The notes: generated by a model not told the origin, from the sequence alone. 45,408 nt of DNA from Candidatus Pacearchaeota archaeon (GCA_023137045.1 JAGLQB010000002.1:1-45408); one strand, 5' to 3'. Positions 7,237 through 39,072 are shown, counted from the stretch's first letter. Program-made: numbers and translations.

Positions 7237-7320
7237 GCGGAAGTGCCGGAGTGGTCAAACGGGCTGGATTAAGGCTCCAGTGGCTTAGTGCCTGCGAGGG
7301 TTCGAATCCTTTCTTCCGCA
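7237..7320 (+). tRNA. tRNA-Leu (type II, long variable arm), anticodon read as AAG
   Basis: Acceptor GCGGAAG/CTTCCGC with A73 discriminator; D arm CCG..CGG; anticodon stem CTGGA/TCCAG with loop TTAAGGC; 15-nt variable arm TGGCTTAGTGCCTGC; T arm GAGGG-TTCGAAT-CCTTT. Confidence 0.85.
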
Positions 7321-7347
7321 TTTATAATATTGAACGAAGTGACCCAC

Positions 7348-7639: not shown

Positions 7640-7671
7640 TCTTTTAAATGAAAATATCTCTTTAAAAATAT

Positions 7672-7760
7672 GCGCTTGTAGCTCAGCTTGGATTAGAGCA
7701 CTTCCCTCCTAAAGAAATTGAGAAAGGAAGGGGTCACAGGTTCAAATCCTGTCAGGCGCG
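7672..7760 (+). tRNA. tRNA-Arg (anticodon CCT) with a ~13-nt intron at the canonical 37/38 position
   Basis: Acceptor GCGCTTG/CAGGCGC; D arm GCTC..GAGC; T arm ACAGG-TTCAAAT-CCTGT. The anticodon stem CTTCC/GGAAG encloses 20 nt, which is the 7-nt loop CT-CCT-A-A plus the insert AGAAATTGAGAA(A). Confidence 0.8.
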
Positions 7761-7810
7761 TATTCATAAACTTTATTAAATAAGATTTCACTATTATTAT
7801 TAAAATATCT

Positions 7811-17182: not shown

Positions 17183-18583
17183 ATGAAGAAAGTACTTTTA
17201 ATGAATATGCCTTCTTGTATTAAAGTTTATGGGAAATCAGCCTTAAAAGGTATCATTGCTCCAAGACCTTTGGTTTCAATGGCAGAATTGGCAGGGTCAG
17301 TTTTGCATGCTGGAGGGGATTGTAAAATCTTAGATTTGCAGGTTGTAGAAAAACCATTCCATGAAATAGAAAAAACTCTCAATGAATACCAGCCTGATTT
17401 AGTTGGCTTAACTTTCACCACACTTTTGTTTGAAGAAGCTAAAAAAGTAGCAAAATTCATAAAAGAGAAATATCCTTCAACAAAAATAATTGCAGGAGGA
17501 GTCCACTCTTCTATTTATCCTGAAGAAGTAATTAAAGAAAAAAATATAGACATTGTGAGTATGGGTGAAGGAGATATAACTATTCAAGAAATAGTAAAAA
17601 ATAAATCTCTCAAAAATATTAAAGGAATTGTATACAAAGATAAAAAAGGAGAAATAAAAAAGAATTCCCCAAGAGAATTAATTAAAAATTTGGACGAGCT
17701 TCCAATGCCTGCGTGGCATCTCTTTAATGCAAAAATTTATATGAACCCCAAAGCAATTGCAAGAGAATCTCCAGTAGGAACAATTGGAACTTCAAGGGGC
17801 TGTGTTTATGGATGCATTTATTGTAACAAAAGTGTTTTTGGAAGAGCTTTCAGAGCAAAATCAGCCACAAGAGTTGTTGATGAATTTGAATTGCTTTTAA
17901 AGAATGGATTCAAGGAAATTCATGTTTGGGATGATATGTTTGCAACTAACCTTAAAAGAGCAAAAGAAATATGTGACGAGATAATAAAAAGAAGATTGAG
18001 GTTTACTTGGCAATTAGAATGTGGTGTGAGGGTTGATTGTGTGGATAGGGAATTTTTTGAAAAATGTGCAAAGGCAGGATGTTATAAAGTTGCTTTTGGA
18101 TTTGAATCTGGGAATGACCATATCTTAGAGTCAATAGGAAAAGGAGCAACAACGCAACAAGCAAGAAATGCTGTTAGATGGGCAAAACAAGCAGGAATGG
18201 AGACATCTGGGTTTTTTATGGTTGGATTACCTGAGGATACAAAAAAAACAATGGACCAAACAATTGATTTTGCATGTTCTCTTGGGCTGGATTATGCCAA
18301 GGCAACAATTTTAGTACCTTTACCTTCAACTCCTGTTTTTGAAGAATTTGAAAAAAAAGGTTTGCTGAAAACAAAAGATTGGAGCAAATACAATTTTCAT
18401 ACTGCGTCTAGGGTGTATGATCATCCCACTCTTGACTGGGAAACTTTGGGAAAATATTATGATAAGTTTCATAAAAAATTTTATTTTAGACCATCTTATA
18501 TTTTAAACAGATTGATTAGAAGCATCAAGAAAAAAGAACTTCTCGACGACATTAAGATGGCTTTCACTACATTTGTAAAATGA
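17183..18583 (+). CDS. Cobalamin-binding-domain radical SAM enzyme (class B) #2 (paralogue of 14518-15912)
   Basis: Collinear with #1: the B12-like N-domain, then SRGCVYGCIYC, VWDDMF, FGFESG and the shared C-terminus FYFRPSYILNR. Confidence 0.85.
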   Translation: MKKVLLMNMPSCIKVYGKSALKGIIAPRPLVSMAELAGSVLHAGGDCKILDLQVVEKPFHEIEKTLNEYQPDLVGLTFTTLLFEEAKKVAKFIKEKYPSTKIIAGGVHSSIYPEEVIKEKNIDIVSMGEGDITIQEIVKNKSLKNIKGIVYKDKKGEIKKNSPRELIKNLDELPMPAWHLFNAKIYMNPKAIARESPVGTIGTSRGCVYGCIYCNKSVFGRAFRAKSATRVVDEFELLLKNGFKEIHVWDDMFATNLKRAKEICDEIIKRRLRFTWQLECGVRVDCVDREFFEKCAKAGCYKVAFGFESGNDHILESIGKGATTQQARNAVRWAKQAGMETSGFFMVGLPEDTKKTMDQTIDFACSLGLDYAKATILVPLPSTPVFEEFEKKGLLKTKDWSKYNFHTASRVYDHPTLDWETLGKYYDKFHKKFYFRPSYILNRLIRSIKKKELLDDIKMAFTTFVK

Positions 18584-19987: not shown

Positions 19988-21055
19988 ATGTTACCTGTAA
20001 AAAATTTGAATACATATAATCTAGAGAACATAATTTCTTCGGATAAGGCTTTTAAACTAATTAAAAAATTCAAAGAAGGTGGAAAAACTATTGGTCTTTG
20101 TCATGGAGGATTTGACCTTCTTCATCCTGGTCAAGTAAAACATTTAGAATCTGCAAAAAATTTATGTGACATTTTATTTGTGTCTATAACCTCCGACAAA
20201 TTTGTAACCTGTAGAAAAGGTTCAGGCAGACCAATTTTTAATGATGTTTTAAGAGCATATATGGTTGGAAATTTAAAATTTGTAGATTATGTTGTGATTA
20301 CAGATTATAAATTAGGGGTTGATGTCATAGATAAGCTTAAACCTACCTATTACATTAAAGGTCCAGATTTTATTAATAAAAAAACACCTGGGATAGATTC
20401 AGAACGCCAGAAAATCAAAGATGTTGGGGGAGAAATAAAATACACTAATGACTCCAAATTATCTACGACAGAGATTATAGATTATATTAAAAATAAAGTT
20501 GATAAAAATAGACTTCTTCTTTGTATAGATAGAGATGGGACTTTAATAGAAGAACAAAATTTTCTTGGAAAAGACAAAGGTTGGGAAAATAAAATTAAGA
20601 TAAAAGAGAATATAATTAGTACAATTTCTTATTTACAAACGAAATATCAAACAACAAAAATAGTTATTAGTAATCAGGCAGGGGTTGCTAGAGGATACTT
20701 TACTTGTAATACTGTAAACAAAATAAATAATTATATCGACCATCTTTTAGAAAAAAGAGGTATAAAAATAGATGCATGGGAATATTGCCCTTATGTTGAT
20801 TCAGCATATGCAGAATCAAAGAAAAATGAAATCAAATTTGATACTAATTTTGTAAAGGATAAAACAAAAAGAAAACCCAATGGTCAAATGATGTTAGATG
20901 GTTTGCAAAAATTAGGAAGAGATATATCTGATTTTAGCCAGATAATTATTTTTGGAGATATGGCAGAAGATCAGATGTTAGCTAAAAAATTAAATGCAAT
21001 TTATATTGATGCAAGTATTGAGTATAACAAAGCAATAGAAAAAGTAGACTTTTAG
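19988..21055 (+). CDS. Bifunctional heptose-1-phosphate nucleotidyltransferase (RfaE domain II-like) / D,D-heptose 1,7-bisphosphate phosphatase (GmhB-like HAD)
   Basis: The N-terminal half has the HxGH-class cytidylyltransferase fold (GLCHGGFDLLHPGQVKHL). The C-terminal half, from about nt 20510, is HAD-IIIA (CIDRDGTLIE, ISNQAGVARGYF, KRKPNGQM, FGDMAEDQ). Confidence 0.75.
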   Translation: MLPVKNLNTYNLENIISSDKAFKLIKKFKEGGKTIGLCHGGFDLLHPGQVKHLESAKNLCDILFVSITSDKFVTCRKGSGRPIFNDVLRAYMVGNLKFVDYVVITDYKLGVDVIDKLKPTYYIKGPDFINKKTPGIDSERQKIKDVGGEIKYTNDSKLSTTEIIDYIKNKVDKNRLLLCIDRDGTLIEEQNFLGKDKGWENKIKIKENIISTISYLQTKYQTTKIVISNQAGVARGYFTCNTVNKINNYIDHLLEKRGIKIDAWEYCPYVDSAYAESKKNEIKFDTNFVKDKTKRKPNGQMMLDGLQKLGRDISDFSQIIIFGDMAEDQMLAKKLNAIYIDASIEYNKAIEKVDF

Positions 21056-21057
21056 TT

Positions 21058-21612
21058 TTATACTGTTTCTTTTAAGCAACAAGTTAAAAAGTGTCCAAAC
21101 ATACTATGGATATCTTCACAGATTTCATAAGAGTCAGATTGGATATGGGCAGAATAATCAGCAATTTTTTTGAGTTTTCCTCCATCAAATCCAGTAATTC
21201 CTATTACAATCATTTCAAGTTCTTTAGCATATTTAGCTCCTTTTATCACATTGGGGCTATTTCCTGAGGCAGAGATAAATATACTAATATCTTTAGGCGA
21301 GGCAAGATTAATTAATTGTTGTCTAAACACTTCATCATAAAAAGAATCATTGGATATTGCAGTTAAATAAGATATATTATTAGATAAGCTTATAACTTTG
21401 TATCTTGTAAAATTCTTTTCCCAATTTTTGTTAGCACCTTTTGATAAATCACATGCGTAATGATTTGCCGTGGAAGCACTACCACCATTTCCAGCCACAA
21501 AAATTTTTTGATTATTTTTTATTGAGTCTTTCAAAACCTGTAAAATTTCTTCATCAAATTCAAAAATGTCTAATGCTTTTTTTATACTTGATTTATATTC
21601 ATTCCAGTTCAT
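21058..21612 (-). CDS. gmhA: Phosphoheptose isomerase (SIS domain)
   Basis: FVAGNGGSASTANHYACDL, ISASGNSPNV and a C-terminal His-containing helix are typical of GmhA. Confidence 0.8.
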   Translation of the reverse strand: MNWNEYKSSIKKALDIFEFDEEILQVLKDSIKNNQKIFVAGNGGSASTANHYACDLSKGANKNWEKNFTRYKVISLSNNISYLTAISNDSFYDEVFRQQLINLASPKDISIFISASGNSPNVIKGAKYAKELEMIVIGITGFDGGKLKKIADYSAHIQSDSYEICEDIHSMFGHFLTCCLKETV

Positions 21613-21613
21613 T

Positions 21614-22618
21614 TCAAATTTTTCTTATAAAATTTAATAGTTTATCTTTAGTAACAAATTCTTTATTTCCTAAAATGTTAGCACCAATACCTCCAATACA
21701 ATTCGCAATAAAAGGCATTGATTCGTTATCAAGTTTTGAATATGCGAAAAGACTCATTATAGCAAAAACAGCATCTCCAGCTCCAACAGTATCTACAAGC
21801 TTTTCTGTAAGAATTGGCGATGTATAATTTATTCCATCTTTATGGAATATACAACCTTCTTTACCGAGCGTTACTAAGAAATTGTTGTGTTTAAACTTCT
21901 CATGGAATTTACAAATGACCTCTTCAAAATTTTCAAATTTCATCATTAAAGGCAATCTTAACTCTTGATCATTCATTGTGATAAACTCAGCATGTTGATA
22001 TTTGGTTACATAATTGTACCCTATATTTGCACTATTTACTTGAGAATTTAAAGATAAGAATTTGGATTTTTCTTGTAAGATTTTTCTAATATCTTTATTC
22101 ATAAAACCATGATCATAATCCAATGTAATCACTAAATCATATTTTGGCAGTTCTCCACAAAGATAATTTTCGATTTCGTGCGATAATTTATTTGAAATAG
22201 GTAAATCATTCATATGCTCAACTTTAAACAACTTATTTCCTCTATTATAATCAATATATCTTCTTTTGATTGTTGTTGGAGAATTTTCTTTGACAAAGCT
22301 TTTTAGTTCAATGTTCTGAGACAAAGAATTTTTGATAAAATTCAAGTGAGAATTTTGGTCTCCAATTAAAGTTACAAGTTTTGATTTAGCTACATAAGAA
22401 CTAATATGATTTGCAACTGCAAGTACTCCTCCAGCATAACTCTCTTCTGATTTGAAACGTGTTGAAAGAATTGGGTCTTTCATCGCCCTCCCCTTTGGTT
22501 CTACAAATGCATACTGGTCAATCACGCAATCTCCAATAATAAACACATTTAAATCTTTTAGTGAGTCTAATCTTTTCTCAAATCCTTCAAAATCAAATTT
22601 TTTCCTTATGTTTGCCAT
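21614..22618 (-). CDS. PfkB-family sugar kinase (RfaE domain I-like heptose-7-phosphate kinase)
   Basis: VFIIGDCVIDQY..., YAGGVLAVANH, TLGKEGC and the anion-hole motif DTVGAGDAVFA. It is adjacent to gmhA. Confidence 0.75.
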   Translation of the reverse strand: MANIRKKFDFEGFEKRLDSLKDLNVFIIGDCVIDQYAFVEPKGRAMKDPILSTRFKSEESYAGGVLAVANHISSYVAKSKLVTLIGDQNSHLNFIKNSLSQNIELKSFVKENSPTTIKRRYIDYNRGNKLFKVEHMNDLPISNKLSHEIENYLCGELPKYDLVITLDYDHGFMNKDIRKILQEKSKFLSLNSQVNSANIGYNYVTKYQHAEFITMNDQELRLPLMMKFENFEEVICKFHEKFKHNNFLVTLGKEGCIFHKDGINYTSPILTEKLVDTVGAGDAVFAIMSLFAYSKLDNESMPFIANCIGGIGANILGNKEFVTKDKLLNFIRKI

Positions 22619-23686: not shown

Positions 23687-23815
23687 TTTAAAATAAAAAA
23701 GTAAGAGGTTAAAAATATTTATCTCTTTGATTATATAATCCAATACTCGAAATTGACTAAGTTTATGTATCTTTCATAGGGCATATTTAAAAATGTTTTT
23801 TTCGTGAAGATTTTT

Positions 23816-25351
23816 ATGGCGGAAGAAAAAGAAAAGGACTTAGATAAATTTTTGAAATTAATTGCTAAATCATCAGTTATTGTTTTTGTGAGCCTAATTT
23901 TGTCAAAAATTTTCACATATGCGTATAGGATCATAATCGCTAGATCTTTCGGTCCAGAAGTTTATGGATTATTTTCTTTAGCAATAATGATTTTAGGGTG
24001 GTTTATCGCTTTTTCTTCTTTGGGTTTGAGTGAAGGTCTTTTGAGATATGTGGCTTTGTACAGGGGAGAAAAAAAAACAAATAAAATTAGATTTATTCTT
24101 AAAACTTCAATAACAATTATTTTCTTTTCAACTATCATTTCAGCAATAATTTTATTTTTATTATCAGAATTTATTTCTATCAATTTATTTCATAACCCCA
24201 GTTTGATAATTTTTCTTAAAATTTTTAGCATCCTTATTCCTTTGGGTGTATTTTCAAATATTTTTCTTTCAGTTATAAGAGCATATGAAAAAATAAATTG
24301 GCATGCTTTCATATTAAATATCCTACAAAATGCTATCAAATTAATAACTCTTGGTATATTAATCATTTTGGGGTTCAAAACTAATGCTGTAATCTTTTCT
24401 TATTTTTTGGGAGTACTAATTGTATTGATAGCTTCGTATTTGGTTTGTAGATACAAAATTCCCGAAATATTCGAAAAATATACTTTACAAAAAAAGATAC
24501 AAAAAAATATTACTAAAGAGTTATTTTCTTATTCTTGGCCGGTTTTATTTTTGGGGCTATTGGGAGGAATTCTTTATTCGGCAGATTCTTTTGTTCTTGG
24601 TTATTTTAAAAGTACATTAGAAGTCGGATTTTATAATGCTGCTGTCCCAATAGCACTGTTATTGAGTATCGCTCCTCAATTATTTACAAGATTATTTTTT
24701 CCCTTAATAACCCGAGAATATTCAAGAAGAAATATCAAAATTATAAAGGGCTTAAGCCAACAAGTTGGAAAATGGATTTTTATATTAAATTTCCCTTTTT
24801 TCATAATTATGGTTTTTTTCCCAGGGGTTTTAATAAACATTCTATTTGGAAAAGAGTACCTTATCGCTGAAAATGCCCTTAGAATTCTTGCTATTGGGGC
24901 TTTTTTTTCAAGTTTAGCTACAATTTCTTCCAATTTAATTTTAATGATGGGAAAAACTAAAATATTTTTAATAAATCTCATAAGTGTTTTTATCTTTAAT
25001 ATTACTTTGAATATAATTTTAATTCCCAAATATGGTCTAAATGGGGCAGCATTTTCCACGATGTTAAGTGGGATAATACTCAGTTTTGTTTTATTATTTC
25101 AGGCGCATTATTATACCTCTATCTGGCCATTGAGGAGAAAAATGTTACGAATTTTCATCGTGACATTGATCCCAATAGCTTTGTTGAGGGGTATAAAACA
25201 ATTCATAGTGATAAATAATCTATCTCTAATCTTAATGGGACTATTTTTCTTTTTATCTTATGTTTTATTAATATTCCTAACAGGATGTTTGGATAAAAAT
25301 GATTTTATGATTTTGAGGAATATAAAAAAGAAAATAATAAGAAAAAAATGA
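23816..25351 (+). CDS. wzx: Wzx-type oligosaccharide/polysaccharide flippase (MOP superfamily)
   Basis: About 510 aa with 12-14 TM helices and Polysacc_synt-like N- and C-terminal halves. The track start at 23804 is a GTG; the ATG at 23816 is preferred. Confidence 0.75.
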   Translation: MAEEKEKDLDKFLKLIAKSSVIVFVSLILSKIFTYAYRIIIARSFGPEVYGLFSLAIMILGWFIAFSSLGLSEGLLRYVALYRGEKKTNKIRFILKTSITIIFFSTIISAIILFLLSEFISINLFHNPSLIIFLKIFSILIPLGVFSNIFLSVIRAYEKINWHAFILNILQNAIKLITLGILIILGFKTNAVIFSYFLGVLIVLIASYLVCRYKIPEIFEKYTLQKKIQKNITKELFSYSWPVLFLGLLGGILYSADSFVLGYFKSTLEVGFYNAAVPIALLLSIAPQLFTRLFFPLITREYSRRNIKIIKGLSQQVGKWIFILNFPFFIIMVFFPGVLINILFGKEYLIAENALRILAIGAFFSSLATISSNLILMMGKTKIFLINLISVFIFNITLNIILIPKYGLNGAAFSTMLSGIILSFVLLFQAHYYTSIWPLRRKMLRIFIVTLIPIALLRGIKQFIVINNLSLILMGLFFFLSYVLLIFLTGCLDKNDFMILRNIKKKIIRKK

Positions 25352-25438: not shown

Positions 25439-25459
25439 GCTACTAGTATTACTAGTAAC
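25439..25459. promoter_or_regulatory. Tandem ACTAGT palindromes abutting the start codon of the first phosphonate-module gene
   Basis: GCT-ACTAGT-ATT-ACTAGT-AAC lies immediately before the ATG at 25460. An AT-rich TATA-like tract sits about 35-55 nt upstream. Confidence 0.3.
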
Positions 25460-25999
25460 ATGAAAAAGGCAGTCTGGGAAAATAAATCAAATGGGCAACT
25501 TTGTGTGACAATTCCAAAAGATTCAGGAATAAAATCTGGAGAGGTAGTAACCATTAAAAAAGAAAAGATTAAGACGATAATTTATTCACCTATAAGAGCT
25601 GATCTGTTCCATTATGGACATTTAAGATTGTTGCAAAATGCTAATAAATTGGGTGACCTTCATATTTGTGGTATTTTGACAGATGAAGCAATAAAAACAT
25701 ATGCAAAAGAACCTCTGGCTAGTTTAAAGGAAAGAGTAGCAATAATATCTGCCTTGAGGTGTGTTGACATGGTTGTGATTCAAAGAAGTTTAGATCCCAC
25801 AGAGAACTTAAAGAAAATTCACACTCAATTTAAAAATGCAAAAATAATCCTTGTATATGGTTCTAACTGGAAAAAGGTTCCAGGAGCAGGATACATAAAA
25901 AAAATTAAGGGGGAGATTGTGCAACCTCCTTTTTATAAAAGATTATCAACAAAAAATGTGATGAGTAAACTTATTCAAAGTTATAAAAATGGATTATAA
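25460..25999 (+). CDS. HxGH-class cytidylyltransferase (TagD/ECT-like) with an AbrB/SpoVT-like N-terminal segment
   Basis: Residues about 8-35 ([25 protein letters not shown]) resemble the AbrB/MazE swapped-hairpin. These are followed by [20 protein letters not shown]...[11 protein letters not shown], the cytidylyltransferase core. Confidence 0.65.
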
Positions 26000-27299
26000 A
26001 AGAAAAAAAGTGTATGTTGCCATGTCTGCAGATTTAATTCATCCAGGACATTTAAAAGTGGTGAGTAAAGCCAGAGATCTCGGGCATGTTACTATTGGGT
26101 TATTAACTGAGAAAGCAATTGCAAGTTACAAACGTCTCCCAGCTCTTTCCTATGAACAAAGAAAAATTATAGTAGAAAATATTAAAGGAGTAGAAGAAGT
26201 TATTCCTCAAGAAACACTCGATTATATGCCAAATTTAAGAAAAATAAAACCAGATTATGTTGTTCATGGAGATGATTGGAGAACGGGTGTTCAAAAGCAA
26301 ATAAGAAACAAAGTTATCGAAGTGCTTAAAGAGTGGGGGGGTCAATTAGTCGAAATTCCCAATTTCAAGGATATTTCTTCAACTAAAATCAATGAAATTT
26401 TAAGAGAAATAGGAACAACTCCCGAAAATAGGAGGAAAAGCTTAAGAAGATTACTAGAAGCAAAAGATTTAGTTAGATTCTTAGAAGCACATAGTGGTTT
26501 AACAGGTTTAATCGTAGAAAAAGTAAATGTTATTCAAGAAGATACCAAAAAAGAATTTGATGGTGCTTGGATAAGTAGTTTAACTGATTCAACCTGTAAA
26601 GGGAAACCAGATACTGGATGTATTGATTTAACTTCAAGATTAAATACCATAGAACATGTATTAGAATCAACTGTAAAGCCCTTAATTGTTGATGGGGACA
26701 ATGGGGGTTCTATTGAGCATTTTCCATTAACTGTGAAAACTCTCGAAAGGTTGGGGATAAGCGCTATTATCATAGAAGATAAAGTTGGTTTTAAAAAAAA
26801 TTCTTTATTTGGAACAGATGTACTACAAACTCAAGATTCAATAGAAAATTTTTCACATAAAATTTCTCAAGGAAAAAAAGCACAAGTGACAGAAGATTTC
26901 ATGGTTATAGCAAGAATAGAAAGTTTAATCTTAAAAAAAGGTTTATGGGACGCACTATTAAGGGCAAGAGCATATATTGAAGCTGGAGCAGATGGGATAA
27001 TGATACATAGTAAAGAAAAGAATCCCACAGAAATTTTAGATTTTTGTAAAGAATACTCTAAATTTGATAAGAAAGTCCCTTTAGTAGCAGTACCTTCAAC
27101 TTATAGTATTATGACTGAAAAAGAACTTAAAGATGCTGGAGTTAACATAGTAATTTATGCCAATCATTTATTGAGAAGCTCTTATCCTGCAATGGTCAAA
27201 ACTGCAGAGTCAATACTTTTTAATGAAAGAGCTTATGAATCAGAACAGTTCTGTATGCCCATCAAAGATATTCTGATATTGACTGATAAAGGAGGGTAA
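25989..27299 (+). CDS. pepM: Bifunctional cytidylyltransferase / phosphoenolpyruvate mutase (Fom1-like architecture)
   Basis: The N-terminal domain is [18 protein letters not shown]...VVHGDDW. The C-terminal domain, from about nt 26410, has [26 protein letters not shown] and the PepM-diagnostic [10 protein letters not shown] (EDKxxxxxNS). Confidence 0.85.
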
Positions 27300-27350
27300 T
27301 AAAATTGTTTAAGATGGTGAATATATTAAAATGGTATTTCTTTGAATAAA

Positions 27351-28481
27351 ATGATTAATTGTAATGATTTATACAGAATTTTTAAAAAGAATGATTTAAT
27401 TTTTTTTGCAGGTGTCCCTGATTCTACTTTCAAAGATTGGATGAAATATTTGGCAGATAGTGATGGAGAAAAATTAACAAATAGGGTAGCAGTTATAGAA
27501 AGAGATGCAGTCGGTTTAGCAGCAGGGTATTATCTCGCAACACAAAAAATTGGTGTCGTTTATATGCAAAATTCGGGTTTAGGAAATGCAATTAATCCAA
27601 TAACTTCTTTAGCAGATTCTGAAGTATACAAGATTCCTATGATTTTGATGATTGGTTGGAGAGGAGAACCTGAGAAAAAAGACGAACCTCAGCATAAAAA
27701 AATTGGGAGAATAATGCTGCCGTTACTGGATATATTGGAAATTCCTTATAAGGTTCTTCCAGAGAACATAGAAGAAGCTGAAAAAATAATAACTGAAGTG
27801 AAAAATATTGCTGAAAGAGGAAGTAGACCCGTTGCTCTTATTATCAAAAAGGGAATTTTAGAAGAATATAATGCTCAGAAAGAAGTAAAACTCAATTACG
27901 AAATGAAAAGAGAGGATGCAATTAAAATTATAATTGACAATTTGAGTGGCTCAGAAGTAATAGTATCCACAACTGGCAAAAATTCCCGGGAATTATTTGA
28001 ATATCGGGAAGAAAAAAATTTTGGGCACCAAAATGATTTTTTAATGATTGGTTCAATGGGAGAAGCTTCAGTTATTGGTGCAGAAATAGCTCTCCAAAAA
28101 CCAAACAAAAAGATAGTAATTTTTGATGGAGATGGGGCAGCTATGATGACAATGGGTGCTATGGCTACAATAGGAAATTATCACCCTAAGAATTTATCCC
28201 ATATAATTTTTGATAATGGTACTTATGGTTCAACTGGGGGGCAGCCAACATTTTCTGAAAATGTGGATTTTGAAAAAGTTGCATTGGCATGTGATTATGA
28301 CGGAGCCAGAACCGTAAAGACAAAAAAAGATCTCAAACAAGTAATTGGAGATTTAAAAAACCAAAAAGGTCCACAAATAGTTATTGTTAAAATAAACAAG
28401 GGAGCAAGAAAAGATTTGGGAAGACCAACTACAACTCCAATAGAAAATAAAAAAGCGTTTATGAATTTTTTAAGAAAATGA
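27351..28481 (+). CDS. ppd: Phosphonopyruvate decarboxylase (ThDP-dependent)
   Basis: FFAGVPDSTFKDW at the N-terminus and the ThDP motif FDGDGAAMMTMGAMATIG...IIFDNGTYGSTGGQ. The track start at 27342 is a TTG; the ATG at 27351 is preferred. It lies immediately after pepM. Confidence 0.85.
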   Translation: MINCNDLYRIFKKNDLIFFAGVPDSTFKDWMKYLADSDGEKLTNRVAVIERDAVGLAAGYYLATQKIGVVYMQNSGLGNAINPITSLADSEVYKIPMILMIGWRGEPEKKDEPQHKKIGRIMLPLLDILEIPYKVLPENIEEAEKIITEVKNIAERGSRPVALIIKKGILEEYNAQKEVKLNYEMKREDAIKIIIDNLSGSEVIVSTTGKNSRELFEYREEKNFGHQNDFLMIGSMGEASVIGAEIALQKPNKKIVIFDGDGAAMMTMGAMATIGNYHPKNLSHIIFDNGTYGSTGGQPTFSENVDFEKVALACDYDGARTVKTKKDLKQVIGDLKNQKGPQIVIVKINKGARKDLGRPTTTPIENKKAFMNFLRK

Positions 28482-29191
28482 AAGCAATCATCATAAATGC
28501 TGGGCTAGGAAAAAGAATGAAAGAACTAACAAAAGATAAACCCAAGTGTCTAATAAAATTAGTTGAGGAAGAAACTATTCTTGGAAGACAATTGAGTATG
28601 TTAAAAGATAATGGTTTAAAAAGTATTATTATTCTTACTGGATATTTTAGTGATAAGATTAAAGGATATGTGAAGGAAAACTTTTCCCAACTTGATGTAG
28701 AATATATCTTTAATCCTTTTTACTCAAAAACAAATTATATTTATACATTGTCTTTAATAGCAGATGAAAAAATAGATGATAATGTAATTTTGATGCATGG
28801 TGATATGGTGTTCAATAAAACTCCTTTTAAAAGATTAATAAATTCAGCATATAATGATGCCGTTCTTATGAGCAAAGAAATAAAATCTGAAAAAGACTTT
28901 AAAGGAAGGGTGGAAAAAGGAATTATTAGTAAGATTGGAGTAAATGTTTTTGGAGATAATTGTTTTTTCTTGGCCCCAATTTATAAGATGTCTAAAGATA
29001 ATTTTTTATTATGGCTTGATAAAACAAGAGATTTTGTAAAAAGAGGAGAAACAAAAGTTTATGCAGAAAACGCATTCAATGAAATTTTTTCTACCATAAA
29101 ATTAAAACCTGTTTATTTTACTGAACTTTGCAATGAAATAGATACTGAACAAGACTTGATTAAAATTAAAAATGAGATTTACAAGAGATAA
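28478..29191 (+). CDS. LicC/PntC-like nucleotidyltransferase (GT-A-like NTP_transf fold)
   Basis: MKAIIINAGLGKRMKELTKDKPKCLIKL is the G-x-G-x-R nucleotide-binding loop of sugar/phosphocholine nucleotidyltransferases. ATGA overlap with ppd. Confidence 0.75.
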   Translation: MKAIIINAGLGKRMKELTKDKPKCLIKLVEEETILGRQLSMLKDNGLKSIIILTGYFSDKIKGYVKENFSQLDVEYIFNPFYSKTNYIYTLSLIADEKIDDNVILMHGDMVFNKTPFKRLINSAYNDAVLMSKEIKSEKDFKGRVEKGIISKIGVNVFGDNCFFLAPIYKMSKDNFLLWLDKTRDFVKRGETKVYAENAFNEIFSTIKLKPVYFTELCNEIDTEQDLIKIKNEIYKR

Positions 29192-29192
29192 A

Positions 29193-30320
29193 ATGAAAAA
29201 AGAATATTTTGGTTTTGGGAGTGTATGTAATCTTAAAGAAATTTTAGACAAAGAAAAACCAAAAAATATATTTTTAGTAACCGGAAAATCTTCTTATGAA
29301 AAATCAGGCGCAAAGGACGCTATAAAATCAATTTTATCAAATTATAATATAACTCATTTTTGTAATTTTGAAGTTAATCCTAAACTAAAAGATATTATAA
29401 AAGGAATTGATTTATTTAAAAAAGAGGCATGCGATTTGGTAATTGGAATTGGGGGGGGAAGTGTAATTGATATGGCTAAGTCAATAAATTGTTTTGCCAA
29501 TAATCCAGCAATTCCTTCTGAATATTTAAAAAAGGAAAAAATAATTGAAAATAAAGGTAGAAGTTTAATAGCTATACCAACAACTTCTGGAAGTGGAAGT
29601 GAATCAACTCATTTCGCTGTCATTTATATGTGCGGCAGAAAGTATTCCCTTGCCCACGAATTTATTTTGCCTGATTACAGTATTATAGACCCTAGTTTTA
29701 CATTAAATATTCCAAAAAAAATTACAGCTTCGAGTGGTATGGACGCCTTGGGTCAGGCTATTGAGTCTTATTGGTGTGTTAATTCTACTGACCAGTCTAA
29801 ACAATATGCCTCTAAGGCCATAAAATTAGTCATGAATAATTTAGTTAATGCTGCCAACAATTTTTCCAAGGAGTCAAGAGAAGCTATTGCTAAAGCAGCA
29901 CATTTAGCAGGAAAAGCTATTAATATTACTAAAACAACAGTCCCTCATTCAATCTCTTACCCATTAACTTCTCACTTCGGTATTCCTCATGGACATGCTG
30001 TATCTTTAACTTTACCGTCAATTTTAATCTATAATTCTAAAATAACAGAACAAGAGTGTTTAGATATAAGGGGAGTTGCTTATGTAAAGAAAACAATAAA
30101 TGAAATTGTTAATTTGCTTGGTTGTGGAAGCGAGAAGGACGCTAAAAATAAATTAGTTTATTTAATGAAAAACATAGGGCTAGAAACTAATTTAAGAGAT
30201 TTAGGCATTTCTAATTTAGAAATTATAATAAAAGAAGGCTTTAATCCTGATAGAGTAAAAAATAATCCAAGATTATTGACAGAAAGCAATTTAAGAGAAA
30301 TACTAAAAGAGTTATTTTAA
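29193..30320 (+). CDS. Iron-containing (group III) alcohol dehydrogenase, probable phosphonoacetaldehyde reductase (PhpC/FomC-like)
   Basis: GIGGGSVIDMAKS, the PTTSGSGSE NAD loop and metal-site His residues (HFAVIY..., PHSISYPL..HFGIPHGHAV). The alternative upstream ATG at 29172 overlaps the previous gene. Confidence 0.75.
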   Translation: MKKEYFGFGSVCNLKEILDKEKPKNIFLVTGKSSYEKSGAKDAIKSILSNYNITHFCNFEVNPKLKDIIKGIDLFKKEACDLVIGIGGGSVIDMAKSINCFANNPAIPSEYLKKEKIIENKGRSLIAIPTTSGSGSESTHFAVIYMCGRKYSLAHEFILPDYSIIDPSFTLNIPKKITASSGMDALGQAIESYWCVNSTDQSKQYASKAIKLVMNNLVNAANNFSKESREAIAKAAHLAGKAINITKTTVPHSISYPLTSHFGIPHGHAVSLTLPSILIYNSKITEQECLDIRGVAYVKKTINEIVNLLGCGSEKDAKNKLVYLMKNIGLETNLRDLGISNLEIIIKEGFNPDRVKNNPRLLTESNLREILKELF

Positions 30321-31103
30321 ATTATTTTTTTTGTCTACGTCTTCTAATCTTTTTAATTCCCTGTAGAAATTTTTAAAGAACAAAGGTACAAATAAAATAA
30401 CTGTAACAATTAAGAACCAATGTACTACATTAAAGATTATTGCCCAAAAAAATAAAGACTTCTGCATATATTGTGGCTTAAATATACTATGCAACCATTT
30501 TAATTTTCCAGGAGTTGTTTTTTCTTTTCTTGCTTTGTTTATTAGTTTTATTTTTCCTGATTGTATCAGCGAGTCATATACCCTTAATTTAATCACTTGA
30601 TCTAAAGAGAATACTATTGTAAGAACCACTCCTGCATAAAAATAGTAAATTTGATCAAATCTCATCCAAGCTCCAACACCAATACCAAAGAATATTGATA
30701 TTCTGATTAAAAAATGAGAAAGATCCTCTAAATAAAGCCCTGTTACAGAACCTTCTTTTTTTCCTTTCCTCCACATCCAATATCTTGCTACTTCTCCGTC
30801 AGAATGGTCTATGATGGCAGCAAGATTAAATAAGATAAGGAAACTTATGCTCGCCCAGTATTGTCCAGACCATAAAAGAATTGTAGAAGCTACCCCAAGA
30901 AATATCCATAAATAAGAAACCATGTTAGCAGAAATTCCAAGATGCAAAAAAAGTTTAGTAAGATAAACAGAAAATTTAGTAAAAATTCTTACTCTTATGT
31001 CTTTCTTTTTATTTTCTTCTCTTTCTTTACTCCAAACAATTTTCCTCATTTCAGGAATTGTTAATTCTGATAATTTTTTTTCTTTTAGTTTTTCAAGATC
31101 CAT
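30312..31103 (-). CDS. CDP-alcohol phosphatidyltransferase-family membrane protein (divergent)
   Basis: 6-7 TM helices with IIDHSDGEVARYW (DxxDGxxAR) followed by ...GLYLEDLSH. The spacing between the two halves of the motif is longer than canonical. Its 3' end overlaps the convergent ADH gene by 9 nt. Confidence 0.6.
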   Translation of the reverse strand: MDLEKLKEKKLSELTIPEMRKIVWSKEREENKKKDIRVRIFTKFSVYLTKLFLHLGISANMVSYLWIFLGVASTILLWSGQYWASISFLILFNLAAIIDHSDGEVARYWMWRKGKKEGSVTGLYLEDLSHFLIRISIFFGIGVGAWMRFDQIYYFYAGVVLTIVFSLDQVIKLRVYDSLIQSGKIKLINKARKEKTTPGKLKWLHSIFKPQYMQKSLFFWAIIFNVVHWFLIVTVILFVPLFFKNFYRELKRLEDVDKKNNLK

Positions 31104-31179: not shown

Positions 31180-31704
31180 TTATTCTTTATCGTATAAATC
31201 TCTCCGTTCGATTATCATCGCGGGACCATAAGAATTATTAATTTTTATATAATCTCTAATGACCTCTTGGGAATTTTTAGGTTCATAAATTGGGAATTTA
31301 ATCATCTCTCTAAAAGCTTCTGTAAAATCTTGTGTATGCTGGGCACCAGGATTAAGAGGGATCTTTGAGCCAATGACGGCTCTGATTATTACTGGTGTTT
31401 TAAATTGATCTTTTGACATTGATCCAAGTTTATCCAGATGATTAACTATTCCATCTAATGCATTGAGAACAAAATCATGTCTTTCAAAAAAGATAACTGG
31501 TCGGTAACCTTCCAGAGACATACCAATTCCAAGACCCATCATTAAATTTTCTGCAAGAGGAGTTTCTATTTTTTTATCTCTGGGAACATCACTAAGTGTA
31601 CCATAAGCTTTTGAGCCAAAACATACATTGTACCCTAAGAAAACTGTATTTTTCTCTTTGACCAGCATTTCCATTGATTTTTTGATCGCTTCTCGATATG
31701 TCAT
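31180..31704 (-). CDS. ThDP-enzyme Pyr-domain subunit (E1-beta/transketolase-like, truncated; no C-terminal domain)
   Basis: MTYREAIKKSMEMLVKEKNTVFLGYNV...ETPLAENLMMGLGIGMSLEGYRPV resembles an E1-beta N-domain. The start is taken at 31704 (TAG-G-ATG junction with the alpha subunit); the track start is 31740. Confidence 0.65.
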   Translation of the reverse strand: MTYREAIKKSMEMLVKEKNTVFLGYNVCFGSKAYGTLSDVPRDKKIETPLAENLMMGLGIGMSLEGYRPVIFFERHDFVLNALDGIVNHLDKLGSMSKDQFKTPVIIRAVIGSKIPLNPGAQHTQDFTEAFREMIKFPIYEPKNSQEVIRDYIKINNSYGPAMIIERRDLYDKE

Positions 31705-31705
31705 C

Positions 31706-32332
31706 CTAAAAACTATTGCCTCCTGCTTTAAATCCTCCAAAATCTACCCAATTTCCAGTACCAACATGAGGATATGTTGCTATGTAGTGATATCTTTTAA
31801 CACAGTTAGGCCAGATCATTTTTGATTTCCCATATCTCGAACTTTTGGGCGTTTCTACAGATCTATCATTATCTTCTATAATAAATGTACAAGGAAGATT
31901 ATAGCCATCAACATACCTCACAGCTTCATAAAAATGCCCTTCATCTTCTGCACCATCTCCAACAAAGCACCAAACATTTCTTTTGCTATTTTTTTTCTTC
32001 AATGCTAAAGCAACACCTACTGCTGTAACAGGTATGCCTGCCACAATTGATGATGTCAAAAAATTTAGTTCTTTATCAAAAACATGCATACTGTCCCCTC
32101 TTATTATCATTTTTTCTAAATTTGTTTTAGACCCACCTGCAAGCAAGTAATGATAATGTGAGCGATGAGTAGAAAATACATAATCTCCTTCCTTCACTTC
32201 TTCAAATATTTTAATTAACTGTTCTTCATTCCCTCCACAAAGATGAACAGGATAAGGTATTTTTGCCTCTTCCCAAAGTCTGGCAATATTTTTTTCAAAA
32301 TTTATCAGTTCTTGTTTTGTTATAACTTCCAT
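31706..32332 (-). CDS. ThDP-enzyme PP-domain subunit (E1-alpha-like, miniature 208 aa)
   Basis: ThDP-binding motif VWCFVGDGAEDEGHFYEAVRYVDGYNLPCTFIIEDND (GDG-x26-ND). It is much shorter than canonical E1-alpha. Confidence 0.65.
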   Translation of the reverse strand: MEVITKQELINFEKNIARLWEEAKIPYPVHLCGGNEEQLIKIFEEVKEGDYVFSTHRSHYHYLLAGGSKTNLEKMIIRGDSMHVFDKELNFLTSSIVAGIPVTAVGVALALKKKNSKRNVWCFVGDGAEDEGHFYEAVRYVDGYNLPCTFIIEDNDRSVETPKSSRYGKSKMIWPNCVKRYHYIATYPHVGTGNWVDFGGFKAGGNSF

Positions 32333-32333: not shown

Positions 32334-33392
32334 TTATATAAAATTATCTTGCTGTTCTGGATTTTTGACTCTATGAAGATACCTATTAATCACATCTAGC
32401 CTACACCCTTTTCTACAATTTTTAACCCCTTTTTCTTCTAGCTTTTGTAAGATCTTTTTCCGTTTATCTCCTTTCCAAATTTCCTCAAATTTGTTTTCAT
32501 ACAAATTCCCATAAGTAAATTCTGGGTTATCATAAAAAAGATTACAAGGGATAACATTCCCTTTCGCGTCTATTAAAGTAATAAATGGAAGCCCGTAACA
32601 TTTTGGATAGTTATTTCCATCCTCAATTCGTTCAATTGTTGCACGCCTAAATTTAATCTGAAAATCATCAGAATTAAATACTTTTAATTTTCCTTCAAGT
32701 TCATTATACTTAGCAGGATTTACAATTAAATTATTCAAACTACTTGGATGATGAGAATATGGTTTTACTTGTAAATTATCGACACCAATACTCTTTAATA
32801 TTTTAGCTAACTTTACTGCTTCTCCTTTATTTTGAGGAATCATTAGAAATTGAGCTCCAATTATTGTTTTCAAATTATTCTGATTTCTAAATTTTACAGA
32901 CTCTTCAGCATTTGCAATCACTTTTGTAAAATCTTTCTTGTCAGTTCCATGAATAAATGCATAATTTTCAGGACTTCCAGAATCTATACTAAATCTTATC
33001 CAAGAAAGATTTGGAAGACATTCTTTTATTTTATCATTAGTAAATGCCAACCCATTAGTTGTTATAGAAACATCCATACCATACTGTTTAGCTTTTGTTG
33101 TGAATAAACCAATATTCTTATGAAGTGATGGTTCACCTTCTCCAGCAAACATAACAGATTTTACTCCCATATTTGCCATATCTTCTAATGTACGAACTAT
33201 TATCTCTTTGTCTATAAAACTTTTCCCCTTTTCTAAAAAGTCTAAAGCACAAAAAATACACTTATGATTACAAGCATTTGTTAGTCCAATTTCAACATAA
33301 ATAGGATAACAATCTCCTTCTTTTTTCCATTCAGTAGTTCTTTCTGGATGATACATCAGTTTGTGATAATCTATGTCTGGTTGGTTTGTCAT
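32334..33392 (-). CDS. Radical SAM enzyme with Cys-rich C-terminal (twitch/SPASM-like) region, non-B12 type A
   Basis: LTNACNHKCIFCA (CxxxCxxC), FAGEGEPSL and ITTNG, with C-terminal GNVIPC...CRKGC. The track start at 33422 is a TTG; the ATG at 33392 is preferred. Confidence 0.8.
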   Translation of the reverse strand: MTNQPDIDYHKLMYHPERTTEWKKEGDCYPIYVEIGLTNACNHKCIFCALDFLEKGKSFIDKEIIVRTLEDMANMGVKSVMFAGEGEPSLHKNIGLFTTKAKQYGMDVSITTNGLAFTNDKIKECLPNLSWIRFSIDSGSPENYAFIHGTDKKDFTKVIANAEESVKFRNQNNLKTIIGAQFLMIPQNKGEAVKLAKILKSIGVDNLQVKPYSHHPSSLNNLIVNPAKYNELEGKLKVFNSDDFQIKFRRATIERIEDGNNYPKCYGLPFITLIDAKGNVIPCNLFYDNPEFTYGNLYENKFEEIWKGDKRKKILQKLEEKGVKNCRKGCRLDVINRYLHRVKNPEQQDNFI

Positions 33393-33538
33393 TTTTAAAA
33401 GATATGTTTCATTTGGTATCAAAACAAATTTATAAATTTATATGTGCTGGATTAATAATCCTTTTGAATTGGTGGTGAATTACAATAATGTTTATATATT
33501 TTTTATCACAAAAATATGAATCTCTTTTAAAGAAAAAT

Positions 33539-34551: not shown

Positions 34552-35625
34552 ATGGCAGACACAAACCCTAATTATAGTTCTTTGAAAATAGTTTGGCATA
34601 AAAAAAAACTCGAATCTTTATTAAAGAATGAGATTACTGCACCAATAACAGTCAGAGTCAAACCTACAAATAAGTGCAACCACAATTGTTTTTATTGTGG
34701 TTATCAAAAAGATAAAGAACAAATTCTTTCTGAAACTTTTAGAAAAAAAGACGAAATTCCTAGGGAAAAAATGATGGAGATTTTAGATGATTTTAATGAT
34801 ATCGGTGTAAAAGCCGTTACTTATTCTGGAGGTGGAGAACCATTAATTTATCCTTATATTTTAGAAGCAATGAAAAAAACTATCGGTTTTGGAATAGATT
34901 TATCCATTATAACAAATGGACAAGAACTCAATGATGAAAAAGCAGAAATCTTGGCCCAATCAGAATGGGTAAGAATATCTATAGATGCTTGCAATGCTGA
35001 AACTTTTAATAGAATTAGAAAGAAACCCCAAAAGTGGTTTTATGAAATTAGGGATAATATTAAAAATTTTTCAAAAATAAAAAAACAAGATTGCGAATTA
35101 GGAATTAATTTTGTTGTTAATCATTTGAATGCTTCTTCAGTCTATGAAGCCACAAAATACTTTAAACAATTGGGAATAAATCATATAAAATTTACACCGA
35201 GATGGTTACAGACAAATTTTCATGCATATCATCAGCCATTTAAACAATCAGTAATAGAGCAGATTTCTCAAGCAAGAGAACTTGAAGAAGCAAATTTTCA
35301 GGTATATGACACTTATGAGAATGATTTTAAATTTGCTGGAGTTAAAGAAAGAAGTTACCAAAGATGTTTTTTTATGGAAATTACTCCAGTTATTGGGGCA
35401 GATTGCAATATCTATGATTGTCATGATAGGGCTTACACATTGGACGGAAAAATTGGTTCAATACAAGATAAATCTTTCAAACAAGTTTGGTTTAGTGAAA
35501 AGACCGCAAACAGATTTAAGAGTTTTAATCCGATTGAAAGATGTAAACATCATTGTACTTATGATGCGAGAAATCTCTTAGTAGAAAATATTTTAAAATG
35601 CAGCAAAAGCAAAAATTACCCCTGA
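34552..35625 (+). CDS. Radical SAM enzyme with Cys-rich C-terminal region, non-B12 type B (paralogue of 32334-33392)
   Basis: PTNKCNHNCFYCGY, YSGGGEPLI, IITNG and RISIDA, with C-terminal DCNIYDC...CKHHC. It is collinear with the other non-B12 rSAM. Confidence 0.8.
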   Translation: MADTNPNYSSLKIVWHKKKLESLLKNEITAPITVRVKPTNKCNHNCFYCGYQKDKEQILSETFRKKDEIPREKMMEILDDFNDIGVKAVTYSGGGEPLIYPYILEAMKKTIGFGIDLSIITNGQELNDEKAEILAQSEWVRISIDACNAETFNRIRKKPQKWFYEIRDNIKNFSKIKKQDCELGINFVVNHLNASSVYEATKYFKQLGINHIKFTPRWLQTNFHAYHQPFKQSVIEQISQARELEEANFQVYDTYENDFKFAGVKERSYQRCFFMEITPVIGADCNIYDCHDRAYTLDGKIGSIQDKSFKQVWFSEKTANRFKSFNPIERCKHHCTYDARNLLVENILKCSKSKNYP

Positions 35626-37470: not shown

Positions 37471-39072
37471 TTAAAAATTATGTCTGATTTTAGAATAATA
37501 TTTTTTAAAAATACTTAGTATTGGATAATAATTATTCTCTACTTTTTTAAGAAAACTCACCATGCGATAACGCATTTTACATTCCCTGCACATAATAAAA
37601 TAACTGTAAAGTAATCTATTTTTAATGCAAAAATTTTTATACAATATTTCCTTTTTACAATAAGGGCATTTAATCTTCACTTCATAATTATTTTCTTTAA
37701 TTTTCTTTACTGATAAGGGAATTATGTATTTACGATATTTTCTTTGTGCTTTAAAGATTTCATGTTTAACAATCTCAAATTCTTTATCAGTCATACTATT
37801 AGTCATATTCTCCCAAATGCCTGAATACATCTTATTTGCTATAAAGTCTAATTTGTTTTTTATTATTCTTTTTTCTATACAATGCTCATAAATAGAACTT
37901 TTTGGGTATGGTTGGATAAAATATAACGAAACTTGGCCCTTACATTTTTTCTTCCAATAATCAAGTGTTTCGTAAGCAGTTTCTCTGGTTTCTGCAATAT
38001 CTCCAAAAATAAAATTTGCTTGAATACCCATCTTAAACTCAAAAGACAGATTAATCACTTTATCAATTTGTTGAGGTGTTATTGGTTTTTTCATACTTTT
38101 AAGAATTGTCGAACTCATACTTTCAAATCCCCAACTTACTATTTCACATCCAGCTTCTTTTATTGTTTTAAACATTTCTCTATCTGCATTTATTACAGAT
38201 AATTGGCAACTCCATTTAAGTTTTTGTTTAGTTTCTCTTTGAAGTTTTTTAATTTCTCGACAAAATTCATATAATCTTTTTTTATTAATTGAGAATAAAT
38301 CATCATAAAGAAGAAGACAATTGATTTTATAATTTTTTATGGCCATTTTAATTTCTTCTATAATATTTTTAATAGATCTTATTCTATGTTTATCTCCAAG
38401 AACATGATAACAAAAAGTGCAGTTGAAAGGACATCCCCTACTCCCAAGTATTGAATAAGATTTAGGATTATCAAGTAAATTATTAACAAAATGTTCATTT
38501 GTGTGCATATTATTAATTTGTTCTTTAATTCCGAAATTCTCAAAATTTGGGAAAGGTATAGAATCAAGATTAGTTATTAAAGTCCGTTTATTAGTAGAGC
38601 AAACTTTGTTTTCCTCAAAGAATATGATTCCATCAACTTTTTCTAAATTTCCTTTTTTTTCTAAACATTTCAAAAGTTCTATTATGGTTACTTCCCCTTC
38701 TCCGATTATCCCAAAGTCGGGTTTTAATGAATTAAACATTAATGTTGGTTCACTTGTTATTATAGCCCCCCCTAAGATTATTTTTGGTTTTGATACATGA
38801 GAACGAACAGAGTCTATAATTTCTTTAACTACATTATAACCAATTCCAGAATGTCCTGTTAAAATAAAATCATATCGTTTTTTATCTAAAAAATTCTTTA
38901 TTATATTTTTGATAGTTCCATCATGATGATTCAAATTTAAAATATCTGGATTATGCCCTTCTTTTTTTAAAACAGCAGAAATATAACCCAATCCTAATGG
39001 AAATGTATAATTATAATCAATTTTATTTGTATTATTATATCTTGGAACAATCAACAGCAATCTCATTTTCAT
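37471..39072 (-). CDS. Cobalamin-binding-domain radical SAM enzyme (class B) #3 with C-terminal zinc-ribbon tail
   Basis: B12-like N-domain (LLLIVPR...FPLGLGYISAVLKKEGHNPDILN...GGAIITS), then SRGCPFNCTFCYH, LYDDLF and WGFESM. The C-terminus has CPYCKK-x19-CRECK. Confidence 0.85.
   Translation of the reverse strand: MKMRLLLIVPRYNNTNKIDYNYTFPLGLGYISAVLKKEGHNPDILNLNHHDGTIKNIIKNFLDKKRYDFILTGHSGIGYNVVKEIIDSVRSHVSKPKIILGGAIITSEPTLMFNSLKPDFGIIGEGEVTIIELLKCLEKKGNLEKVDGIIFFEENKVCSTNKRTLITNLDSIPFPNFENFGIKEQINNMHTNEHFVNNLLDNPKSYSILGSRGCPFNCTFCYHVLGDKHRIRSIKNIIEEIKMAIKNYKINCLLLYDDLFSINKKRLYEFCREIKKLQRETKQKLKWSCQLSVINADREMFKTIKEAGCEIVSWGFESMSSTILKSMKKPITPQQIDKVINLSFEFKMGIQANFIFGDIAETRETAYETLDYWKKKCKGQVSLYFIQPYPKSSIYEHCIEKRIIKNKLDFIANKMYSGIWENMTNSMTDKEFEIVKHEIFKAQRKYRKYIIPLSVKKIKENNYEVKIKCPYCKKEILYKNFCIKNRLLYSYFIMCRECKMRYRMVSFLKKVENNYYPILSIFKKYYSKIRHNF

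Follow-up and report, generated by a model that had tools for sequence, protein, structure and literature searches.

What would a small archaeon, probably dependent on a host, do with carbon-phosphorus chemistry? The question is raised by five genes (g1 to g5, Table 1) on a 45-kb stretch of genomic DNA, hereafter the window, to whose full length all positions refer. We give a probability of roughly 80% to the reading that they form a module for cytidylyl-activated 2-hydroxyethylphosphonate (HEP), set within the surface-glycan island of a DPANN archaeon of the Nanoarchaeota/Pacearchaeota type. Judging from the encoded proteins, the most likely product would be the cytidine monophosphate (CMP) adduct of HEP, CMP-HEP, for decorating cell-surface sugars. 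A preliminary description of the same DNA had arrived at this core - a phosphoenolpyruvate (PEP) mutase, a decarboxylase and a reductase leading to HEP and then to CMP-HEP - and family scores, similarity to a crystallised enzyme domain and synteny now support it, whilst several of its particulars have had to change.

The core enzymes and their proposed pathway

At the centre of this reading stands g2, a single 436-residue open reading frame (ORF) with an N-terminal cytidylyltransferase domain (approximately residues 4-141; PF01467 at 14-136) and a C-terminal PEP mutase domain (approximately residues 148-433; PF13714 at 152-410). Against the PEP mutase model TIGR02320 it scores 381.1 bits (E=2.5e-114; curated equivalog cutoff 319.55), compared with 134.5 bits for phosphonopyruvate hydrolase, 92.2 for methylisocitrate lyase and 45.4 for carboxyphosphoenolpyruvate mutase, which disposes of the concern that the domain might align better with either of the last two. 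The EDKxxxxxNS motif, taken in the preliminary description as the mark of a true PEP mutase (PepM), is present. In the alignment with the solved Mytilus PepM (1m1b, 133 bits) DGDNG, ARIE and IHSK stand opposite DADTG, ARVE and MHSK, and the C-terminal part also aligns with Streptomyces PEP mutase, the catalytic motifs being in register. As for the N-terminal domain, its HxGH motif reads HPGH, and over residues 4-141 it is approximately 70% identical to the cytidylyltransferase domain crystallised from Fom1 (5x3d; 194.7 bits, E=2.2e-56), so that the earlier comparison with the fused architecture of Streptomyces Fom1 is upheld. These similarities support g2 as a true PepM, predicted to convert PEP to phosphonopyruvate, fused to a Fom1-type cytidylyltransferase; in Fom1 this domain is reported to make CMP-HEP (Cho 2017, cited by Rice et al., PMC6697681).

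The decarboxylase assignment of g3 is equally well placed. This protein, with both the N- and C-terminal domains (PF02776 and PF02775) of a thiamine diphosphate (ThDP) enzyme, reaches 460.2 bits (E=4.4e-138) against the phosphonopyruvate decarboxylase (Ppd) model TIGR03297, well above its curated cutoff of 312.5 and in line with the original proposal, whilst sulfopyruvate decarboxylase models give at most 139 bits. The motifs quoted for these proteins in the preliminary description, GDGAAMM included, were all found in the translations.

How far does this pairing extend beyond the window? One genome per species was scanned for the fusion protein, relatives of which occur at 62-72% identity in at least 572 species genomes; 80 loci (identified below, where necessary, by L numbers) were fetched and their ORFs clustered, and synteny was counted over those 62 whose downstream flank was no shorter than 2.6 kb. 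Ppd lies beside the fusion gene in 60 of these and a g5 homologue is present in 55, the order fusion-Ppd-dehydrogenase being kept in 48. A word-based search returned at least 8000 matches at approximately 70% identity, with Nanoarchaeota, Woesearchaeota, Falkowbacteria and other bacteria among the named sources. We therefore rejected the idea that the cassette is rare in DPANN, given its many copies in Nanoarchaeota and Woesearchaeota, and the earlier remark that such chemistry would be unusual here falls with it: the same cassette is present, and annotated, in many genomes of these two groups and of the candidate phyla radiation (CPR). In a neighbour-joining tree, which carries no support values, the window falls within a small clade of DPANN, with other DPANN copies scattered among bacteria.

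The accessory genes of the bacterial relatives are informative too. The commonest encode TagF-like phosphotransferases of the CDP-glycerol type (three families, present in 16, 4 and 4 loci respectively) and LtaS/sulfatase-like proteins (9 loci). Enzymes of the TagF-like and LtaS-like kinds build wall polymers from CDP-activated donors, and their presence, by analogy, supports CMP-HEP as a putative donor for wall or glycan decoration.

This synteny is also the main evidence for the function of g5. The dehydrogenase fold is clear (PF00465, 146 bits, E=1.1e-42; ADH_Fe_C, PF25137, 114.6 bits), and because its homologue is a conserved partner of the cassette, we infer that g5 is a phosphonoacetaldehyde reductase of the PhpC/FomC type, making HEP. 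An attempt to name the substrate from solved structures was uninformative, the Protein Data Bank sequence matches all being generic iron-dependent alcohol dehydrogenases (ADHs). The cassette dehydrogenases share a signature of D191, Q/H195, E198, W201, H259, Y263, T266 and H273. Four of these positions we take, by comparison with FucO, to be the metal ligands (Asp, His, His and His in group-III ADHs): D191, H259 and H273 are invariant among the cassette ADHs, whilst position 195, the second ligand, is occupied by Gln in g5; of 60 cassette ADHs, 42 have Gln there and 18 have His. Neither an aminotransferase nor a cupin such as methylphosphonate synthase (MPnS), HEP dioxygenase (HEPD) or HppE was found, as the preliminary description had also concluded, nor was FomD (DUF402), among the window ORFs scanned for families, that is, nearly all those of at least 100 residues; this is consistent with HEP being the phosphonate that is activated.

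A five-step route can thus be proposed. The mutase domain of g2 would isomerise PEP to phosphonopyruvate, which g3 would decarboxylate irreversibly to phosphonoacetaldehyde, pulling the unfavourable mutase equilibrium forward; g5 would then reduce the aldehyde to HEP, and the N-terminal domain of g2 would join HEP with cytidine triphosphate to give CMP-HEP. For the first, second and fourth steps we lean on family membership and close similarity to a characterised enzyme, and for the third on conserved synteny. Finally, a phosphotransferase, for which g6 is the best candidate in the window, might move the hydroxyethylphosphonyl group from CMP-HEP to a hydroxyl of a lipid-linked glycan or a lipid, after which export and attachment of the glycan could fall to the neighbouring flippase (Wzx), to the glycosyltransferases and to PMT_2.

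Table 1. Genes of the phosphonate operon and its immediate neighbours (window numbering)
Feature	Position	Strand	Length	Assignment
g1	25460-25999	+	179 aa	Stand-alone PF01467 cytidylyltransferase, HYGH motif, 37-aa AbrB/SpoVT-like N-terminal extension
g2	25989-27299	+	436 aa	Fom1-type bifunctional cytidylyltransferase-PEP mutase fusion
g3	27351 (or TTG 27342)-28481	+		ThDP-dependent phosphonopyruvate decarboxylase, Fom2/AepY type
g4	28478-29191	+	237 aa	LicC/PntC-like (PF12804/PF00483) nucleotidyltransferase, cassette accessory
g5	29193-30320	+	375 aa	Group-III metal-dependent ADH, inferred phosphonoacetaldehyde reductase
g6	30312-31103	-	263 aa	Polytopic membrane protein, CDP-alcohol phosphotransferase superfamily
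Wzx	23804-25351	+		Wzx/MOP-family flippase directly upstream of the operon; PF01943 87 bits, PF13440 62.5 bits

Operon layout and the additional nucleotidyltransferases

The five ORFs are packed as had been described, with overlaps of 11 nt (g1/g2) and 4 nt (g3/g4) and a gap of 1 nt between the stop of g4 and g5, but their roles are distributed differently. The mutase gene is not the first of the five, a place that belongs to the stand-alone cytidylyltransferase g1. Ppd does follow the mutase directly; the dehydrogenase does not, since g4 intervenes. Nor do all five genes serve the early pathway: only g2, g3 and g5 do, whilst g1 and g4 are extra nucleotidyltransferases. Neither these nor the candidate transferase on the opposite strand figured in the preliminary account.

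With a score of 51.9 bits against CTP_transf_like (PF01467), g1 is a paralogue of the Fom1-type domain and shares 30% identity with the N-terminal part of g2; among solved structures it comes closest to the cytidylyltransferase domain of Fom1 (5x3d, 57 bits) and to ethanolamine-phosphate cytidylyltransferase. Orthologues sharing the N-terminal extension (65-69% identity) occur in L004, L010, L017 and L042, three of which are from Nanoarchaeota or Woesearchaeota and the last of which is labelled Saccharibacteria. The orthologue lies directly upstream of the fusion gene in L004, L017 and L042, and approximately 3.2 kb upstream in L010. Its HxGH motif has degenerated to NYGQ in L017, and in L010 (4281-5245, Nanoarchaeia) the next gene is another PF01467 paralogue; such stacking of cytidylyltransferases may recur in DPANN phosphonate and glycan clusters.

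The best NCBIfam match of g1 is rfaE_dom_II, which made it a candidate for the heptose-1-phosphate nucleotidyltransferase of the island. We rejected this role because a complete nucleotide-heptose set is already encoded at 19988-22618, and because g1 is nearer to the Fom1 domain and ethanolamine-phosphate cytidylyltransferase and travels with the fusion gene, mostly in DPANN loci. The heptose set comprises GmhA (21058-21612, minus strand), a kinase resembling HldE domain I (21614-22618, minus strand) and a nucleotidyltransferase resembling HldE domain II fused to a GmhB-like HAD phosphatase (19988-21055, plus strand).

Just ahead of g1, two copies of the palindromic octamer TACTAGTA stand 1 base apart at 25441-25457, ending 2 bases before the start codon. 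They are the sole copies in the window, where 0.37 would be expected, and two were reached in 4 of 100 shuffles. One could speculate that the pair acts as an operator, linked to the AbrB-like domain of g1.

Turning to g4, its Pfam match is NTP_transf_3 (35.3 bits, cutoff 27) and its best solved relatives are LicC (1jyk, 53 bits) and PntC (6pd1, 35 bits). Nine other loci, from archaea and from Bacillota, have a homologue close to the cassette, and most copies have HGD and YAE(D/N)A motifs in common, the exceptions being the L080 copy and the second copy in L004. In PntC, Glu104 is among the residues reported to contact the amine of 2-aminoethylphosphonate (AEP; PMC6697681). In g4, His107 of the HGD motif replaces this residue and the corresponding Asp of LicC, whilst the second acidic position is kept (Glu197, equivalent to PntC Glu196). 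The histidine, as aligned, argues against an amine-bearing substrate.

A candidate transferase and the weighing of alternatives

If CMP-HEP is made, what transfers the phosphonate to its acceptor? The only candidate in the window is g6, a gene that converges on g5 and shares 9 nt with it at the 3' end. Its score against PF01066 falls just below the gathering threshold (20.3 vs 22 bits). In the family alignment its signature reads D99xxD102G103, A106R107, G122xxxE126xxxH130; compared with the canonical DxxDGxxAR...GxxxDxxxD, residues D99, D102, G103, A106, R107 and G122 are kept, whilst the third Asp is Glu126 and the fourth His130. An AlphaFold2 model (mean predicted local distance difference test score 72.7) gave nineteen top matches in a Foldseek search of the Protein Data Bank that are all CDP-alcohol phosphotransferases (probability 0.96-1.00, best E=3.5e-3), the closest being PgsA1 and a phosphatidylinositol-phosphate (PIP) synthase of Mycobacterium kansasii, with a root-mean-square deviation of 2.2-2.7 Å over approximately 135-140 residues. 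A word-based search had found only 8 close homologues and suggested a rare orphan, a view that we dropped once the full profile search returned 6163 related clusters; 41 of 42 sampled members match PF01066 (best E=3.8e-12), and the change from Asp to His at the end of the signature is found in 26 of the 42. Given the near-threshold PF01066 score, the Foldseek matches, these more than 6000 clusters and the prevalence of the D-to-H change, we place g6 in a large and uncharacterised branch of the CDP-alcohol phosphotransferase superfamily. Close homologues adjoin phosphonate genes in L010 and L088, and a fragment of an iron-dependent ADH at the end of a contig in L083. A role as a CMP-HEP:acceptor phosphonotransferase is plausible.

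Several observations weigh against our reading as a whole. Only 45 kb of the genome are visible, and the remainder could encode an enzyme acting further down the pathway, for example a transaminase, MPnS or a methylase; the operon holds three modules of the cytidylyltransferase type, of which the model explains one. The gene for g6 is on the opposite strand and is probably the last of a separate operon, with a gene for a radical S-adenosylmethionine protein of the SPASM type (rSAM-SPASM) and a split E1-like ThDP enzyme. Its homologues in L085 and L087 have no phosphonate genes beside them (the contigs end close by), and that in L085 occupies the same island position with no phosphonate operon next to it. 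The substrate of g5 is the other weak point. Group-III fold and conserved synteny favour its earlier identification as the reductase, but against TIGR03405, the sole phosphonate-linked model for iron-dependent ADHs, it reaches only 194.1 bits, below the cutoff of 423.7, and the AdhE and lactaldehyde-reductase (FucO) models score it about equally. We attribute this shortfall to the divergence of PhpC-type reductases, whose mean identity is reported as 39% (PMC13576164), and to the coverage of TIGR03405, which takes in one branch only.

Could CMP-HEP be tailored further before its transfer? On this alternative, a B12-binding radical SAM (B12-rSAM) enzyme of the island would act on the nucleotide, for example by Fom3-like C-methylation to CMP-2-hydroxypropylphosphonate, and the product would then be transferred to the glycan. 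The window does encode four B12-rSAM and two rSAM-SPASM proteins, and Fom3 needs the CMP group for substrate recognition (PMC9088020). In DPANN relatives, a 499-residue B12-rSAM gene is located between the Fom1-like gene and Ppd in a Woesearchaeota locus (L017, 6174-10644); others are at most a few kb away from the fusion gene (L005, L010 and L042), or adjoin the g6 homologue in L088 and L083. However, these phosphonate-adjacent proteins are not orthologous to one another or to the window copies (21-37% identity, with only the L088/L010 pair at 80%). The window B12-rSAMs sit at least 7 kb from the operon among sugar-modifying genes, one of them fused to a PseB-like dehydratase, and none reaches an NCBIfam cutoff, those of the PhpK and Sden_1168 P-methylase models included. 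We thus rejected a Fom3-like methylase among the four and regard such tailoring as unlikely.

An outcome other than HEP seems more improbable still. If g5 were not a phosphonoacetaldehyde reductase, the end product could be AEP or methylphosphonate, made by a transaminase or an MPnS whose gene lies beyond the window, and activated by g4. AEP is the commonest outcome of PepM-Ppd clusters (56% of neighbourhoods; PMC8942020), the AEP-specific PntC enzymes are of the same family as g4 (PMC6697681), and only part of the genome is in view. Against this stand the retention of the dehydrogenase with the fusion-Ppd pair, the approximately 70% identity of the fused domain to the HEP-specific domain of Fom1, the histidine of g4 at the amine-contact position, and the lack of any Aminotran_5 or MPnS-like ORF found in the 45 kb; we consider it very unlikely. 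As for a diffusible antibiotic of the fosfomycin type in place of a surface decoration, equivalents of Fom1, Fom2 and FomC are present and B12-rSAM genes lie in the island, but the window yielded neither an HppE/Fom4 cupin nor FomD nor FomA/B kinases, the operon has a Wzx flippase, glycosyltransferases and genes for nucleotide sugars as its neighbours, and the relatives carry TagF-like and LtaS-like wall-polymer enzymes. We consider this possibility the least likely of the three.

Returning to CMP-HEP as the activated product, we could go further and posit that Nanoarchaeota, Woesearchaeota and Pacearchaeota have an elaboration of the HEP cassette of their own, consisting of g1, g4 and g6, with g6 making either a phosphonolipid or a poly(hydroxyethylphosphonate). 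Perhaps g6 would esterify HEP onto lipids scavenged from the host, giving a phosphonolipid head group; or perhaps it would polymerise CMP-HEP head-to-tail into a polymer reminiscent of teichoic acid. We regard this extension as doubtful; were it true, it would provide a phosphatase-resistant surface for an organism that lives attached to another cell.

The island, its host and related systems

The first part of the window encodes archaeal RNA polymerase subunits and ribosomal proteins, together with a 5S rRNA and a tRNA that appears to contain an intron, and its SecD is nearest to proteins from metagenome-assembled genomes named as Nanoarchaeota, Nanoarchaeia and Pacearchaeota. Because of these archaeal genes and this SecD kinship, the host is assigned, by its sequence affinities, to the DPANN archaea of the Nanoarchaeota/Pacearchaeota type. 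In the same region a 184-residue ORF (6767-7321, minus strand) overlaps the 5S rRNA gene (7060-7174, minus strand) and a tRNA-Leu and is probably spurious, and for the tRNA at 7671-7761 (plus strand), with its apparent intron, ARAGORN gives a 4-base anticodon.

From approximately 10.4 kb onward the window is a glycan island: besides the Wzx flippase it encodes glycosyltransferases, PMT_2 and nucleotide-sugar enzymes, and radical SAM genes are numerous. The preliminary description had placed the phosphonate module inside such an archaeal island with a flippase directly upstream, and the annotation bears out both points; the flippase next to the operon marks what would be a glycan-export context. 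In L085, an ENA scaffold, the island order is that of the window (SecD, a small ORF, PMT_2, GT2, Wzx, a glycosyltransferase and the g6 homologue). The lack of a phosphonate operon between its Wzx and g6 genes suggests that the cassette was inserted there or is one of the island's variable modules.

Some further genes of the island deserve mention. A 764-residue protein (39084-41378, minus strand) fuses a B12-binding radical SAM part to a PseB/FnlA-like UDP-N-acetylglucosamine 4,6-dehydratase (TIGR03589, 270 bits, below cutoff); this unusual fusion suggests radical modification of a nucleotide sugar. Five more radical SAM genes, three B12-binding and two rSAM-SPASM, lie at 14518-15912 (plus), 17183-18583 (plus), 37471-39072 (minus), 32334-33422 (minus) and 34552-35625 (plus); all five fall below every NCBIfam cutoff, their best partial matches being HpnJ, BchE, ApyD and PhpK/Sden_1168 P-methylase. 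The ThDP pair that shares a minus-strand operon with g6 and an rSAM-SPASM gene (31180-32332, minus) is made up of a truncated E1alpha-like protein (208 residues, PP domain only) and an E1beta-like protein (174-186 residues, Pyr domain only), and no set homologous to it was seen in the 80 related loci.

Why should such a cassette matter? HEP esters on polysaccharides make up a sizeable share of the dissolved organic phosphorus in the sea, and are a precursor of the methane that derives from methylphosphonate. With the cassette common in the ultra-small organisms of DPANN and CPR, the list of likely HEP producers becomes longer, and a phosphatase-resistant, phosphonate-decorated DPANN surface could matter for attachment to the host. 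Our literature search found no paper specifically on phosphonates in Nanoarchaeota, Woesearchaeota or Pacearchaeota. More broadly, phosphonate clusters have been reported in six archaeal phyla from cold-seep surveys, and metagenome-assembled archaeal clusters have been catalogued (PMC11051675).

Among known systems, the closest parallel is Fom1/Fom2/FomC of Streptomyces, with which the window shares the first four chemical steps and the protein architecture, namely the PF01467-PepM fusion, a ThDP-dependent Ppd and a group-III ADH. Beyond these steps the likeness ends: no Fom3 orthologue could be recognised and no Fom4/HppE, FomD or FomA/B found in the window, the context is glycan export and not an antibiotic, and the operon has two extra nucleotidyltransferases. 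The Pnt systems of phosphonyl tailoring (Rice et al. 2019, PMC6697681) follow a common logic, in which the phosphonate is activated with CMP and then passed on to a glycan or lipid of the cell surface. The characterised PntC, however, is a PF12804 enzyme acting on AEP, whereas here the phosphonate is predicted to be HEP, g4 has a His for the amine-contact acid, and the host is archaeal. Indeed, neither the fusion nor the surplus of nucleotidyltransferases is exceptional, as PF01467 fusions make up 23.6% of Ppm proteins and nucleotidyltransferases occur in two-thirds of clusters, some with more than one (Rice et al. 2019, PMC6697681).

The PhpC neighbourhoods of the HEP branch, such as that for the HEP exopolysaccharide of Stackebrandtia nassauensis and that of Nitrosopumilus maritimus, share the core of PepM, Ppd and iron-dependent ADH and the use of HEP for polysaccharide (PMC8942020); this branch accounts for 8.5% of inventoried neighbourhoods, archaeal examples included (Li & Horsman 2022, PMC8942020). 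They differ in the candidate transferase, which is of the CDP-alcohol phosphotransferase type here and of LicD, sulfatase or TagF types elsewhere. The methylphosphonate cluster of N. maritimus is an archaeal precedent, but no MPnS was found in the window, and the host is a DPANN archaeon, not a thaumarchaeon or an actinomycete. With the CDP-alcohol phosphotransferases (PF01066; AF2299, PIP synthases, IPCT-DIPPS) g6 shares the fold and the DxxDGxxAR...G part of the signature, and the reaction required of it, in which a P-substituent passes from a CMP-linked donor to an alcohol and CMP is released, is the chemistry of that family; on the other hand, Glu and His take the place of its third and fourth Asp, and the donor would be a CMP-phosphonate and not a CDP-alcohol. 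The cassette is thus a widespread one whose architecture and enzymology have already been described, and the main additions from this locus are a taxon and a candidate for the transferase, with no new principle emerging.

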